Virus record (IMG/VR): IMGVR_UViG_2579778778_000007
DNA from: a virus
Taxonomy: Duplodnaviria > Heunggongvirae > Uroviricota > Caudoviricetes
Direction: 5' to 3' (one strand)
DNA: 34,897 nucleotides
Below are positions 3,833 to 8,117 of this stretch, one piece after another. The notes below the pieces were generated by a model. That model ran no database searches, had not been told where the DNA came from, and saw nothing but the letters and a program-made list of their open reading frames with translations. The translations under genes were made by a program, and so were the position numbers. The stretch's first letter is position 1; each line of letters opens with the position of its first letter.

Positions 3833-4084
3833 ATGTCTGATCGTAAGTACAAAAACCCTCAAGTGAATCTGAGGCTTCCTGTAGAGATAAAGGAACGTCT
3901 TATTGAACTGGCTGAGGCTAATTCTCGTTCATTAAATGCTGAGATGGTCGCGGCACTTGAAGCGTGGACCGAAAAAAATAAACACATTCAAGCACTAGAC
4001 CTTGCAACTATAGCATCACGATTGATAGATCTTGAACACGATGTTGAGACGCTAAAGACCATGTATGGTAAGGATGCAAAATGA
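3833..4084 (+). CDS. mnt: Mnt-like ribbon-helix-helix repressor
   Basis: ORF track 83 aa (same length as P22 Mnt as remembered); N-terminal RHH-like segment NLRLPVEIKERLIELAEANSRSLNAEM; divergent from arc-ant. Confidence 0.55.
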   Translation: MSDRKYKNPQVNLRLPVEIKERLIELAEANSRSLNAEMVAALEAWTEKNKHIQALDLATIASRLIDLEHDVETLKTMYGKDAK

Positions 4085-4290
4085 ATAAAAAACAGTTTAT
4101 TAAGTCAACAACGTCAAGCAAGGAAGAGCTAGAGAAAGAGCTAAACTCCCTGAAATATGCTCTGTGTCTGGTTTACTCAAGACTGCCAATGGAAGATAAA
4201 AACGCCATTTACAATGAAATGATTAGCAGCCTTGATTTTAACGATAGAGACCTAGCATCCCACCTCAACAGCTTCCGCGTCCCTGAGTAA
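4081..4290 (+). CDS. Hypothetical protein, translationally coupled to mnt-like gene (ATGA overlap)
   Basis: ORF track 69 aa; start overlaps mnt stop; no recognised homology. Confidence 0.35.
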   Translation: MNKKQFIKSTTSSKEELEKELNSLKYALCLVYSRLPMEDKNAIYNEMISSLDFNDRDLASHLNSFRVPE

Positions 4291-4450
4291 TTCTGTTGCG
4301 GATTTGCTTCTTACGGTGGTTTAAGCTGGAGAGCTTGGCTTCTGCTTCTGATATTTGCGCATCAAGATCTTTAAGCTCAAGATCTGAAAGTCGCTGGTCA
4401 AGCAGGGTTTGGTTCAATTCAATGTTGTTCAGACGTTCTTCTATGGTCAT
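4265..4450 (-). CDS. Hypothetical small coiled-coil protein
   Basis: ORF track 61 aa; strong SD AAGGAG 5 nt upstream of ATG; begins immediately after the terminator at 4464-4489; overlaps 3' end of the plus-strand ORF. Confidence 0.35.
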   Translation of the reverse strand: MTIEERLNNIELNQTLLDQRLSDLELKDLDAQISEAEAKLSSLNHRKKQIRNRITQGRGSC

Positions 4451-4463
4451 GATTTCTCCTTAT

Positions 4464-4489
4464 AAAAAACCCACCTGAAGGTGGGTTTT
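4464..4489. terminator. Bidirectional rho-independent terminator (AAAAAA-CCCACC-TGAA-GGTGGG-TTTT)
   Basis: Perfect 6-bp GC stem flanked by A-run and T-run; between convergent transcription units. Confidence 0.65.
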
Positions 4490-4493
4490 ATAA

Positions 4494-5462
4494 TTAGATT
4501 TCTGGTTTCATTCTTCCGAAAACCTTTTCTATTCCTTTTTCGTATTCTTCTCTTGTCTCACTCATCGCTGCGACACCAAGAAGCTTACCGATATGCTGAC
4601 GCAAAGCCTTGACACCAATTTCAGAAAGGAACAGATGCAACTTATCAGATTGTTTTCCGTTCTCGTCTCGGCTGGCTCGAATCTGTTCAAGGATTTTACC
4701 TTTACTCTTTGCTAGCGGGGTGTATATCTGCATGTTGGTTAGCTGCCCAAAACGAATAGGCCGTCCTTTCTCTGGCCTATTCAGGCCGTACAGTCGATAC
4801 CACTCCTCGTATAGCTCATCTGGAAATTCCTTTTCATATTGACGAGCCTCTTCACGAACAAACGCTTTGAACTCGTCAATGACAGCCTGAACTTCTGGAC
4901 GATAACCAGCAAGCGCATACGCAACCCCCTTAATTCCCGCCTTAGCGGAGGCATTAATAAGTCTCTGTGCTGCGGCGGCTGCCTTTAACCGTGATTGTGG
5001 TAGATCGTCATTATCTTTGGCTTCTATTAGTGCCCTACCAATATCAACAATTGCTGTAATGTCATAACCTAACGCTTGATGAACGGTTTTAGACTTCGAA
5101 GTAAGTTGAAATTTATAGGGATTTTCCATTTTTCGCTGCAATTCTAGATCTCGGTATTTGCTCATATACTGAGCGCCAAGCAGTTGATCTAAATCCCTGG
5201 CATGTTCACCAATCCCTAGCAACTGAGATAATCCAGTTTTCGTAACAACGACAGTTTTCGACTCGTCATCCAGTACATAACATTCAGCATCAATGCCAAA
5301 ATCATCTAAAAAGTTACCACGATGAGTTGCCCTGAGAATCTTACTTTTCCATCTTGCAGCAGCTGCTTTCTTTGCTATTTCAGAACGCTGCTCTTTAGTC
5401 AGCGACTTTGCGCGAGCGATCCCGCCCTTAGCTTTCCCTTCGCCACTTTTCTTTTCAGTCAT
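4494..5462 (-). CDS. Hypothetical protein (322 aa from ATG at 5462) with lysine/arginine-rich N-terminal segment; function unknown
   Basis: ORF track 4494-5525 begins at a TTG; in-frame ATG at 5460-5462 with SD-like AAAGGTG; occupies the locus where P22 has sieA. Confidence 0.7.
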   Translation of the reverse strand: MTEKKSGEGKAKGGIARAKSLTKEQRSEIAKKAAAARWKSKILRATHRGNFLDDFGIDAECYVLDDESKTVVVTKTGLSQLLGIGEHARDLDQLLGAQYMSKYRDLELQRKMENPYKFQLTSKSKTVHQALGYDITAIVDIGRALIEAKDNDDLPQSRLKAAAAAQRLINASAKAGIKGVAYALAGYRPEVQAVIDEFKAFVREEARQYEKEFPDELYEEWYRLYGLNRPEKGRPIRFGQLTNMQIYTPLAKSKGKILEQIRASRDENGKQSDKLHLFLSEIGVKALRQHIGKLLGVAAMSETREEYEKGIEKVFGRMKPEI

Positions 5463-5555
5463 AATGCAAGCACCTTTGTTGTGATGTATGCTTGCATTAT
5501 ATGCACTGTACACACATACAAGCAAGCATAAAACAAAAACAAAATGCTTGCATTA
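5461..5555. promoter_or_regulatory. Divergent control region with two paired inverted repeats of motif TGCTTGCA/TGCAAGCA (operator candidates)
   Basis: 12-bp perfect inverted repeat ATAATGCAAGCA (5461-5472) / TGCTTGCATTAT (5489-5500); second imperfect pair 5521-5528 / 5545-5552; each pair has a 16-bp spacer. Confidence 0.45.
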
Positions 5556-5618
5556 CAACCGCGCTACTCCAACTACACATTATCATCTGGTATCCTGCGC
5601 AAAACTAAGGAGGTTGGT

Positions 5619-5948
5619 GTGCTTGAATGGTTTCTGTTGGCTGCATTAGTCGTTTCTGGTTTGGTGTATGAGTATCGAATGCACTCTCTAACAAAAAAAA
5701 TAGGAATTCTAGAAAACGAATATTGTGCTCTCAAATCCTCACTGGAACGTGAGCAAGGAGACTTAAAAATCTCTCTGTCTAGCATTGAGCGTTCTATAGA
5801 GAGCCTAGAGGATAAGGTTGATCGTATAAAGAATGAGGATATTCATGATATTAAGGACGACATATCCTTCTTAAAATCTTGGTTGAAAAATGTTGGGAAA
5901 ATTGCCACATCAACACGAGATAAGCTCAATCCATCCATGGATGACTAA
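5619..5948 (+). CDS. Hypothetical membrane-anchored coiled-coil protein (about 109 aa from GTG; alternative ATG at 5544)
   Basis: ORF track 5544-5948; in-frame GTG at 5619 preceded by SD AAGGAGG with 5-nt spacer; N-terminal hydrophobic helix LEWFLLAALVVSGLVY then heptad-rich region. Confidence 0.5.
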   Translation: MLEWFLLAALVVSGLVYEYRMHSLTKKIGILENEYCALKSSLEREQGDLKISLSSIERSIESLEDKVDRIKNEDIHDIKDDISFLKSWLKNVGKIATSTRDKLNPSMDD

Positions 5949-8117
5949 TTACTCCTGTGCCATTCCGCTTAGCGATGCCACAATTCCAGCTCTTGCTAAA
6001 CGCTGGAACTCTTCGTTTCCTAGTGCCTCGCGTATTGCTTTTACGGCGGCCTTATTTGCCATAAATCTGCGTTCCGCCGCCGCTAATGCACCATCACTTG
6101 CCCCAACCTTAACTGCCTTTGTTGCCTCTTGAACAGCCTTTTCAATAGCGTAACGACCGCTTCTAGTTGCGGATAATTTCGCTATCGCTCCTTTTGCCAT
6201 TGCATCAATTGCCCCACCTGCAGCGCCACCCGCTATTGCTCCAATAACGCCTCCTCCAGAGAACCCTGCGATAGTGCCAGTAGTTCTAAAAGCGCCAGAC
6301 AATGCGCTCTCTAAAACTGGATGAAGGCCATTCTCAAGAGTGCTAATGGCTGGCATAGATCGCCCTGTCTGTTCAACATATCGAAGTGGCTTTGTTGCTG
6401 CTCGTGCAAGTTCTCCGTATGAACTTGTAATCCTGCCAAGTTCTGGAGAATATCGACTAATTGCCTTCACGTTTTGTGGGGTAAGAATAGTCGCGATATG
6501 CTTAATTCCAGCCTCTTCAGACTTACCTCCGCGTACCCCTTGCGACATTGCATCTTGTAATATTGATGCAATTGCTGGCGCGCGTTCCGACTCAGGTAGG
6601 GCGCTTATTATTTTATGGAACTGACCTGTTCCACTTTTTGCTGAACCCTGTAACGCCTTAGATCCATTAGTTACCAACTGATCAGTTGCAAGGTCTCTAC
6701 CAAACGCTGCTTCAGCCTGTTCTTGTGCTGTAAATCTTGCCTTTGACAGATCATTAGCTTTTTGCCAGTCATCAAGAAAACCGCCATTTTGAGCCATTAT
6801 GCGCATATCTTCCGTTGCTGCATCACGAAGCTCAGCCATGCGCCTTGCCGTATTTGCCTCACCAGACCTTATATACTTCTGCTCTGCGTCAGCAAGTTTA
6901 CTTCGCCATGCCTTCATGGCATCAAACGTGATTCCTTTTTTACCAGTTTTAGCATAAGCAGATGCGAATTGTTTCATCTCAGGAGTTAGCGGCATGCCAG
7001 CCAAAATATCACCCTGAATTGTAGCGTTCAGGTTTGACATTCTGGCCTTTGCGTCAGGCATCGTGGAGCGGACGCTATCCCATGCAGCCTTTTCTGAATT
7101 TTTCATTTTATCAATACTTGCCAAAACCCTTTGTTTTATGGCTGCACTTTTTTCTGATGCAGTTCCTGCTTCAGCCCCAAACTCATCCAATGCTGAGTTA
7201 AATTTCGACTCTATTTCACTGAATGCTTTGGTGTGTGCATCCTGTGTAATTCCGGGCTTTGACGCCAGAATCCCCTCCGCCTGAGCAAGACCACGACTAC
7301 CTGATCTCATGCCAGGAGTTAATGCGTTGATATCTATTCCAGCAGTATCTGCTGCTTTTGCTATTTCGTCTGACACATTAGCTGACTGTCTGGCAATAAT
7401 CTCTCTTCCTGTACCAGACTTTGCCATTTTCGAAACATCAGCAGCGGAATTTATTGCCCCGCCACCAAGAACTTGAGGTGATTTAGAGGTTAAGATCCTT
7501 CCAGCCCCAGAAAGTATCCCCTGAGCACCAATATTGATACCACCGTTAATGGCAGCATTTTGTGCAAAGTCGCCCTCCTGATTTGCAGCATCAGCAAGAG
7601 AACCTGCAATCATGTTTCCTGCGGAACCGATATCTTCAGCGAGCTTTGCTGGCGCTCCAGCAGCTTTTGCCGCTGTGCCAATTGGCAGGAGATACCCACC
7701 AATTGTTTCACCGGCTTGCGCGTAAGGGTCTGTCGGTCGATCGACAGGGCGATAAACATCATCCAAAACCTTTGGGCCACCAAGCCCCTGGCTGATTGCA
7801 TTAATCAGACTTGCGCCACCCTGCAATACGTCAAATGGTATGTTTACCAGACCACGACCAGCCTGTTCTGCAATTTGCCCTGCACTTTGACCACCAGTGA
7901 GCCAATCGCCAGCTTGTTGCATCAATGATGGTTCTTCTTTCTGCTGCTGAGGTGGAGGGTATGCTGCATAAAACTGATCTCTTGCTTCAGCCCATTTGTC
8001 ACCAGCCTTAGGGGCAACAACCTCATCAAAATATTGCGCTTGAGCCTGTGCTTTCTGTTCTTCAGTTAACGCCTGATACTGTGGAGAAGCGATAACATCT
8101 TTCCATGCTTTAGCCAT
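5949..8117 (-). CDS. Ejection (injection) protein, P22 gp16-like
   Basis: ORF track 722 aa; Ala/Gly-rich; synteny after gp20-like gene. Confidence 0.65.

Follow-up and report, generated by a model that had tools for sequence, protein, structure and literature searches.

A P63C-family gene carried by a P22-like prophage of Escherichia coli is preceded by four copies of a 10-bp near-palindrome, ATGCWWGCAT, which overlap its predicted promoter and translation start and accompany the gene across phyla. The DNA in question, hereafter the window, is the whole stretch of 34,897 nucleotides of the virus record IMGVR_UViG_2579778778_000007 (IMG/VR). It represents a HK620-type prophage (Lederbergvirus) with 100% identity to the MB46 chromosome. 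In our best reading, the gene and its upstream region constitute a self-contained moron of ~1.1 kb (4464 to ~5556, minus strand), which would combine its own predicted sigma-70 promoter, putative operator sites, a gene for a protein of 322 amino acids (aa) and a terminator. With moderate confidence, we propose negative autoregulation, together with insulation from read-through transcription, as the mechanism of the four-site element.

Four near-palindromic sites at the predicted promoter

The P63C gene occupies positions 4494-5462 on the minus strand, where a first-pass annotation of this DNA had placed an open reading frame (ORF) of 322 aa; the sequence confirms it. The four copies of the repeat fall within 5461-5555 and form two inverted pairs. 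All sites are assigned to the minus strand and given here in the orientation of the gene. O1 (5544-5553, ATGCAAGCAT) is the upstream flanking site. O2 (5520-5529, ATGCTTGCTT) includes a -35-like TTGCTT (5525-5520), located 18 nt upstream of the -10 element. O3 (5488-5497, again ATGCAAGCAT) is fused to this -10 element, TATAAT (5501-5496), with the predicted +1 near 5489. O4 (5464-5473, GTGCTTGCAT) is found between the Shine-Dalgarno (SD) sequence AAAGGTG (5471-5477) and the ATG (5462). In addition, ATGCTTGCATTA is directly repeated at 5488 and 5544, and the whole repeat region forms a 34-nt imperfect palindrome.

The inverted repeat at 5461-5472 / 5489-5500, annotated at first pass as a perfect 12-bp pair, indeed matches at 12/12 positions. 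The second pair that had been described is also present, and is exact over 8 bp only (5522-5529 / 5544-5551). The exact octamer occurs in three copies at the locus instead of the four that had been reported; O2 reads AGCAAGCA. Similarly, the figure of 95 bp given for the intergenic region corresponds to the approximate span of the repeat cluster (5461-5555), while the start codons are 156 bp apart (5463-5618).

Counted across the whole window, the octamer is not significant alone (4 observed vs 3.25 expected), and three of the four copies are located within 90 bp. Good matches to ATGCWWGCAT are found in the 35-kb window only at the P63C promoter. Dyad-symmetric, repeated sites overlap the predicted -35, the -10/+1 and the ribosome-binding site (RBS), as is characteristic of autorepressed genes. 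With O2 and O3 on the predicted promoter, O4 on the ribosome-binding region and O1 as an upstream flank, the arrangement is predicted to be that of an autorepressed promoter.

Conservation of the sites across phyla

It is the comparison with relatives that places the repeats beyond chance. Loci encoding relatives were sampled from genomes (80 loci, one genome for each species) and from viruses (another 80), and the 130 nt preceding every start were read. The compilation of upstream regions covers 164 loci. Among 124 unique upstream regions, 63 have the exact AA-TT-AA-TT order of sites at fixed positions, with the cores at -91..-84, -67..-61, -35..-31 and -11..-8 relative to the ATG. When 166 nt per family member (160 upstream of the ATG and 6 coding) were scanned against the rest of the ~1 Mb of the same loci, GC(AA/TT)GC cores were enriched 23-fold.

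Nearly everywhere, the same series of motifs can be observed: ATGCAAGCAT, ~14 nt, ATGCTTGCAT, ~22 nt, TATA-ATGCAAGCAT, ~14 nt containing the SD, and (A/G)TGCTTGC-AT(G). The sequence logos give core spacings of 24, 32 and 24 nt. In an alignment of 68 diverse sequences (A2), 6-8 positions of every site are invariant and the spacers are unconserved. The six bases ending in the first two of O3 read T86 A89 T63 A66 A87 T95 in the family logo, which corresponds to TATAAT. In 60 of 65 loci, the cores of O2 and O3 are 31-32 nt apart, which positions the TTGC(A/T)T of O2 17-18 nt upstream of the -10 element. The O4 core precedes the ATG by 6-10 nt (usually 6-9); in other members, it overlaps the start codon as ATGCTTGC-ATG.

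The conservation extends to distant relatives, with 45-50% protein identity to the window protein; the coding DNA between such loci is ~64-73% identical. Isolates with the same sites come from Proteobacteria and Myxococcota and belong to Burkholderia, Rhodanobacter, Massilia, Caballeronia, Mesorhizobium and Myxococcus, and metagenome-assembled genomes (MAGs) carrying the motif have been assigned to Acidobacteriota, Firmicutes, Syntrophaceae, Oscillospiraceae and others. In most enteric loci, the upstream neighbour is co-directional with the P63C gene and ends in a terminator, and the P63C sites are kept there. The proposal that the repeats serve as operators of the large gene is thus supported at the level of sequence: they overlap its predicted -35, -10/+1 and RBS/ATG, and travel with the gene across phyla.

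The P63C-family protein and the edges of its cassette

The first-pass annotation could not assign either protein of the locus to a known family. Both do belong to one. The 322-aa protein matches Pfam P63C (PF10546) over residues 199-286 with 52.7 bits (gathering cut-off 26.1), and PHROG 2384 over its full length, with residues 6-321 aligned to profile positions 4-328 of 338 (E 1.7e-104). Its RefSeq entry, WP_000136767.1, is named 'P63C domain-containing protein'. The 109-aa protein is HkcB of phage HK620 (PHROG 5962), described below. We found 1,682 close homologues of the P63C protein and, by profile search, 3,074 cluster representatives at 50% identity. Relatives occur in the phages 933W and ST104/ST64T-like as well as in Burkholderia and Gordonia phages. 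Our alignment of 56 family sequences (A1) contains 47 invariant columns.

Three parts can be predicted in the protein: a basic helix pair at residues ~11-38, which we call the GG-ARA-RW motif, an alpha/beta domain (43-134) and a helical C-terminal domain (137-315), with the Pfam P63C region inside the last. The lysine/arginine-rich N-terminus noted at first pass is borne out by 13 such residues among the first 41. The AF2 model has a mean pLDDT of 78, with the alpha/beta domain modelled confidently. The top structural match in BFVD is p63 of the Myxococcus phage Mx8, a weak one (E 1.5e-3, probability 0.98, TM 0.21-0.26), followed by a run of weak matches to Ant-N-terminal, Bro-N and 'repressor domain' proteins. 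This run hints that the alpha/beta domain may belong to a Bro-N/Ant-N-like class of phage DNA-binding domains. For the P63C protein, KilA-N gave no Pfam match at E <= 1, the NCBIfam search returned no family, and PADLOC models gave no match at E <= 1, with only trivial coiled-coil matches for the small ORFs. Iyer, Koonin and Aravind reportedly defined the P63C domain in 2002 among phage regulators of the Bro-N/KilA-N type. The literature that we searched mentions the 'P63C domain' without any account of its function.

The gene ends in an intrinsic terminator (4464-4489, minus strand) composed of a CCCACC/GGTGGG stem, a 4-nt loop and U6; the RNA of 4452-4500 on the same strand folds at -18.6 kcal/mol (z -4.6). 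The cassette has its left edge here. Where it abuts mnt, as in phage 611R6 and several E. coli genomes, the DNA match begins at the equivalent of window position 4462-4464.

In some E. coli prophages, 348 bp are inserted after orf61 and before the P63C terminator (L003:2752-3142, between the equivalents of window positions 4450 and 4464). The insertion encodes an ORF of ~67 aa with a transmembrane (TM) segment and two CxxC pairs, resembling a zinc ribbon.

The N-terminal motif and the candidate binder

The N-terminal motif reads GKxKGG(I/V)ARAxxL(T/S)xExRSxIAxKAAAARW. Orf23 of the Salmonella phage ST104 is 31% identical to the window protein overall and ~75% identical in this motif, and its gene has the same four sites and an upstream terminator. 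Four relatives that lack the motif have no sites. In the clade of 933W (27% identity), the repeats are different and contain ACGTGCA.

Based on this co-inheritance of sites and gene, we infer that the product of the P63C gene is the binder and repressor of the sites. The protein would bind all four of them and repress its own promoter by occluding O2 and O3, helped by O1 and O4. Binding would probably involve the basic N-terminal helix pair, possibly together with the Bro-N/Ant-like alpha/beta domain. Such autorepression would hold the protein at a low, constant level in the lysogen.

Several observations weigh against this assignment, however. The N-terminal helices are modelled with low confidence (pLDDT 54-68), and neither the window's own Ant nor Roi of 933W, each used as a single-sequence target, gave a positive profile comparison. 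The promoter and +1 are predictions based on consensus, and a simple promoter scan gave no call, because the -35 matches at 3/6 positions only. Many of the distant loci are MAG contigs, with isolates of six genera showing the same sites. The motif and the sites are adjacent, so their joint loss could reflect a single replacement of the 5' region. Finally, a clade of Acidobacteriota has the N-terminal motif but other repeats, TATACTTGC...GCAAGTATA, which share a GCAAG(C/T)AT half-site with the common type. Operator type showed no clean correlation with the residues of the N-terminal motif.

Two further observations concern the phage relatives. The P63C gene of 933W (ST933Wp35) is located in the nin region between a DNA methyltransferase gene and roi, and is associated with three copies of ACGTGCA, one of them inverted (L166:3379-3423). 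For ST104 orf23, the annotation begins the gene within the operator region (L167:2917-2953), 36 nt ahead of the conserved ATG; this start is probably mis-called.

RNA folding at the start region

An RNA containing both O3 and O4 is predicted to form a 14-bp hairpin, with the AUG buried in the stem and the SD in the 14-nt loop (-16.4 kcal/mol, z -3.9). For the 136-nt region as a whole, the folding energy is -49 kcal/mol (z -4.4). A leader that starts at the predicted +1 shows no structure (-2.7 kcal/mol, z +0.5). The native mRNA would begin at the 3' end of O3 and hence have an open leader. Transcripts coming from outside would carry both arms and fold, burying the SD and the AUG; at this locus, they would originate from late-operon read-through from gene 16, which is on the same strand. 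The hairpin may thus provide a second layer of control, insulating the P63C gene from outside transcription.

These hairpins could also be taken as the whole function of the repeats, acting on translation or stability of the mRNA with no protein reading the sequence. The predicted structures are strong enough for this, and the arms stay complementary in 92% of cells. The outermost O3/O4 pair covaries (CG 20, UA 19, UG 17, other 12), and its compensatory changes, counted as cells with a change on both sides, exceed those in all 500 shuffles. This covariation, which is in part bound to lineage, does not, however, extend beyond one or two flanking pairs. A hairpin has no need for 6-8 core positions that stay invariant across phyla while loops and spacers drift. 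Each 10-mer is itself a near-palindrome, and one sequence is common to all four sites. Moreover, the TATAAT fused to O3 sets the +1 at the end of O3, which would leave the native mRNA without the 5' arm. A purely RNA-based role is therefore unlikely in our view. Rfam 15 contains no family matching the region; the search returned only sub-threshold hairpins resembling miRNA precursors (<=29 bits vs cut-offs >=100).

Link to IS1-family transposons

In 39 of the 78 species-level loci, none of them in Enterobacterales, the P63C-family gene is divergent from a gene for a ~290-aa IS1-family transposase, with the sites between the two. The transposase matches Pfam DDE_Tnp_IS1, with or without the InsA zinc ribbon, and NCBIfam transpos_IS1 (E 6e-17). 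Two further loci have an IS4-like transposase instead. Homology between the IS-linked loci spans a single unit of 2.2-2.3 kb, comprising the transposase gene, the four-site region, the P63C gene and often a convergent ORF of ~80 aa. One such unit (L014:3944-6304) is flanked by 48-nt imperfect terminal inverted repeats. The promoter of the transposase gene in these units is situated in palindromes that share an AAGCAT half-site.

The convergent ORF is present in 22 of the 78 loci (for example L029:3015-3242, L013:5971-6246 and L020:5965-6231). Its C-terminus constitutes a version of the GG-ARA-RW motif, GGLKGGKARAxxLSxExRxEIAxKAAxARW. Its family comprises >3,400 proteins of ~80 aa in which Pfam recognises no domain; one member carries the annotation 'histone H1'.

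Given this linkage, the sites might be bound by the IS1-family transposase through its InsA-like helix-turn-helix, or might be relics of IS ends, so that the prophage copy would be a decaying remnant of a transposition system. The position of the sites between the two genes in half of the species-level loci is in line with this, as are the related half-sites flanking the start of the transposase gene. All 80 viral and prophage loci nevertheless keep the four sites intact without any transposase, over 56-100% protein divergence, and no transposase is annotated in the E. coli counterparts that are 100% identical to the window. The sites are also internal to the 2.2-2.3-kb unit, and the ends of the L014 unit carry different terminal repeats. 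We consider a transposition-related function of the sites improbable. The distribution of the cassette suggests that it circulates in two forms, as a passenger of transposons and as a moron of prophages. A search of the literature on ISPa14 and on passenger genes of IS1 returned nothing relevant.

The divergent gene hkcB is an independent unit

On the other side of the sites, the plus strand carries hkcB (5619-5948), an ORF of 109 aa which had been annotated at first pass and which we confirm. It starts with a GTG located 4 nt after AAGGAGG and abuts the gene 16 stop. It is 98.5% identical to hkcB of HK620 at the nucleotide level and 98.2% at the amino acid level, and matches PHROG 5962 with E 1.9e-61. 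The earlier description of its product as a membrane-anchored coiled coil holds for the hydrophobic N-terminus (Kyte-Doolittle 19-residue mean 1.61); for the coiled coil, the Pfam matches of that type are weak. In HK620, epsilon34, CUS-3 and SEN22, hkcB always adjoins gene 16; the earlier literature mentions it solely as a gene of unknown function at this position in HK620 and epsilon34 (PMC2629481).

A survey of 5,426 complete E. coli genomes identified 46 with the P63C cassette and its repeats, 82 with hkcB, and 16 in which the two are joined. In HK620, hkcB is found beside the unrelated hkcC, and the DNA homology to the window starts only at ~5588. Conversely, an identical P63C protein with its repeats lies beside a gene for a 75-aa protein with two TM segments in E. 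coli A2, and beside one for a 161-aa lipoprotein in E. coli GF66.2. We searched by eye and by scan for a rightward sigma-70 promoter for hkcB and found none that was convincing.

The junction itself can be delimited. The 40 bp at 5582-5621 are 100% identical in >100 E. coli genomes whose flanking genes differ on both sides, and because of this full conservation between differing flanks they are taken as a mosaic boundary. The segment (plus strand) would also function as a translation-initiation region, with the SD AAGGAGG and the GTG serving any gene that fills the slot beside gene 16. Breakpoints between modules were observed at 5588, 5616 and 5621.

The first-pass annotation had proposed that the 322-aa and 109-aa proteins constitute one autoregulated two-component module for superinfection exclusion or abortive infection, with a shared divergent control region. 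This is highly improbable: although the genes are divergent with repeats between them, the locus is positionally equivalent to that of sieA in P22, and the 34-nt imperfect palindrome might in principle work in either direction, the counts given above show that the genes assort independently, each has other partners, hkcB is absent outside Enterobacterales, and the cassette in most enteric loci faces a terminator. The apparent divergent pair is best explained by two accessory ('moron') units, independent of each other, of a HK620-like prophage of the P22 family, which, as judged from the sequence comparisons, meet at a mosaic junction. Within this arrangement, hkcB is one of at least three putatively interchangeable small envelope proteins encoded next to the ejection gene 16.

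The two alternates were located as well, the 75-aa protein at L004:4768-4995 and the 161-aa lipoprotein, with a LLAGC lipobox, at L005:4371-4856. The first three bases of O1, read on the plus strand, form an ATG in frame with hkcB, which gives rise to a 134-aa ORF annotated in phage 611R6 (extension 5544-5618). We favour the 109-aa form because of the conserved SD and the GTG at 5619, and because of the HK620 breakpoint at ~5588.

Genomic context

The gene order in the window is gene 7, gene 20 and gene 16 (5949-8117) on the minus strand, followed by the locus studied here and orf61, and then mnt (plus strand), arc, ant and the tailspike gene. The stretch from gene 16 to the tailspike gene is the hyper-variable 'ant moron' of P22-like phages (PMC2629481). 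In the P22 annotation, sieA occupies the ant moron between gene 16 and mnt. The sieA-equivalent position claimed for the locus, between gene 16 and mnt/arc/ant, therefore agrees with both the P22 annotation and the literature on the ant moron.

Two small ORFs of the window, convergent and overlapping, encode 69 aa (4081-4290, plus strand) and 61 aa (4265-4450, minus strand). They match PHROGs 16466 and 7586, respectively, and the 61-aa product is a coiled coil. The pair is common to the phages Emek and Kapi1 and is absent from other carriers of the P63C cassette. In the ant moron of one E. coli prophage, a gene annotated as a ClpP proteolytic subunit directly follows mnt (L005:2399-2935).

Discussion

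Our analysis provides a testable handle for the P63C family, in the form of a 10-bp DNA motif, a predicted promoter/operator layout and a candidate DNA-binding motif that is common to P63C proteins and >3,400 small 'histone H1-like' proteins. P63C proteins are common in phages and prophages, including the Shiga-toxin phage 933W and the ST104/ST64T-like Salmonella phages, and one and the same cassette moves, across phyla, between accessory slots of prophages and transposons of the IS1 family. It is unusual for a non-coding motif to be conserved this widely. The P63C family itself was already defined. What appears to be undescribed so far is the conserved architecture of the operators, the N-terminal motif that is shared with other proteins and the linkage to IS1; the literature searched contains no account of the four-site operator, of the GG-ARA-RW N-terminal motif or of a link to IS1. 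The locus also holds a lesson for annotation, as an apparent 'divergent pair' can be a mosaic junction rather than an operon-like module.

The slots in which the gene is found bear on its possible role. It is located in the ant moron in the window, immediately after cI in ST104 and in the nin region in 933W; the slot after cI holds rexAB in lambda and bstA in the Salmonella prophage BTP1. Position, taken by itself, points to an accessory role of the P63C gene that would be expressed in the lysogen, and makes superinfection exclusion or abortive infection plausible. We would tentatively ascribe to the effector body of 280 aa a role in conflicts between phages or mobile elements, borne by prophages or transposons.

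Among known proteins, the closest are those of the P63C family, whose prototype is p63 of Mx8: the window protein matches the family significantly over its full length at the sequence level, and p63 is its best, though weak, structural match in BFVD.

SieA of P22 resembles the locus in its map position between gene 16 and mnt, and hkcB and its alternates encode small envelope proteins, as does sieA. By this analogy, they may be regarded as the more natural positional counterparts of sieA than the P63C gene. Homology to SieA was rejected for both genes: BLASTP of hkcB against SieA gave no alignment, and the P63C profile compared with SieA by hhalign gave a probability of 0.2%.

A parallel to the proposed arrangement of sites is offered by Arc and Mnt of P22 at Pant/Pmnt, where the annotated operators similarly overlap the -35, -10 and +1, and where the presence of several sites suggests cooperative binding. 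In contrast, the P63C protein is a 322-aa polypeptide with a large conserved body and not a ribbon-helix-helix protein, one of its sites covers the start codon, and its operator sequence is conserved across phyla.

The transposase genes of IS10 and IS50 are protected by fold-back structures from read-through transcription originating outside the element. As in those elements, the native start at the P63C gene would lie between or inside the arms of an inverted repeat, with the 3' arm on the RBS and AUG, so that only outside transcripts would fold. The fold-back of the P63C gene differs in that it is predicted only, that its arms are also sequence-conserved sites, and that the gene regulated is not a transposase.

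BstA of BTP1 is an abortive infection protein with a cognate DNA element, aba, which overlaps the start of its gene (PMC8585504). The P63C protein shares with it a size of ~300 aa, a putative DNA-binding N-terminal half followed by a second domain, and a prophage location. The four sites overlap the start of the P63C gene just as aba overlaps that of bstA, and the ST104 relative occupies the bstA slot directly after cI. The window gene, on the other hand, lies in the ant moron, and the slot after cI is used only by this 31%-identical relative. The element aba is 63 bp long and contains CCCGCC direct repeats, instead of four palindromic 10-mers. Homology between the two proteins was rejected, as hhalign of alignment A1 against BTP1 BstA gave a probability of 5.7% and PADLOC gave no match. 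A broader reading, which we regard as rather unlikely, would make P63C proteins a large, so far unrecognised class of sequence-specific DNA-binding effectors that prophages and IS1-family transposons carry and that act in mobile-element conflict through abortive infection or exclusion, similar to BstA. The four-site cluster would then act both as an autoregulatory operator and as a decoy that senses copy number, giving aba-like self-immunity upon replication of the carrier. At the level of analogy, BstA is the closest worked-out counterpart of the P63C cassette in architecture.

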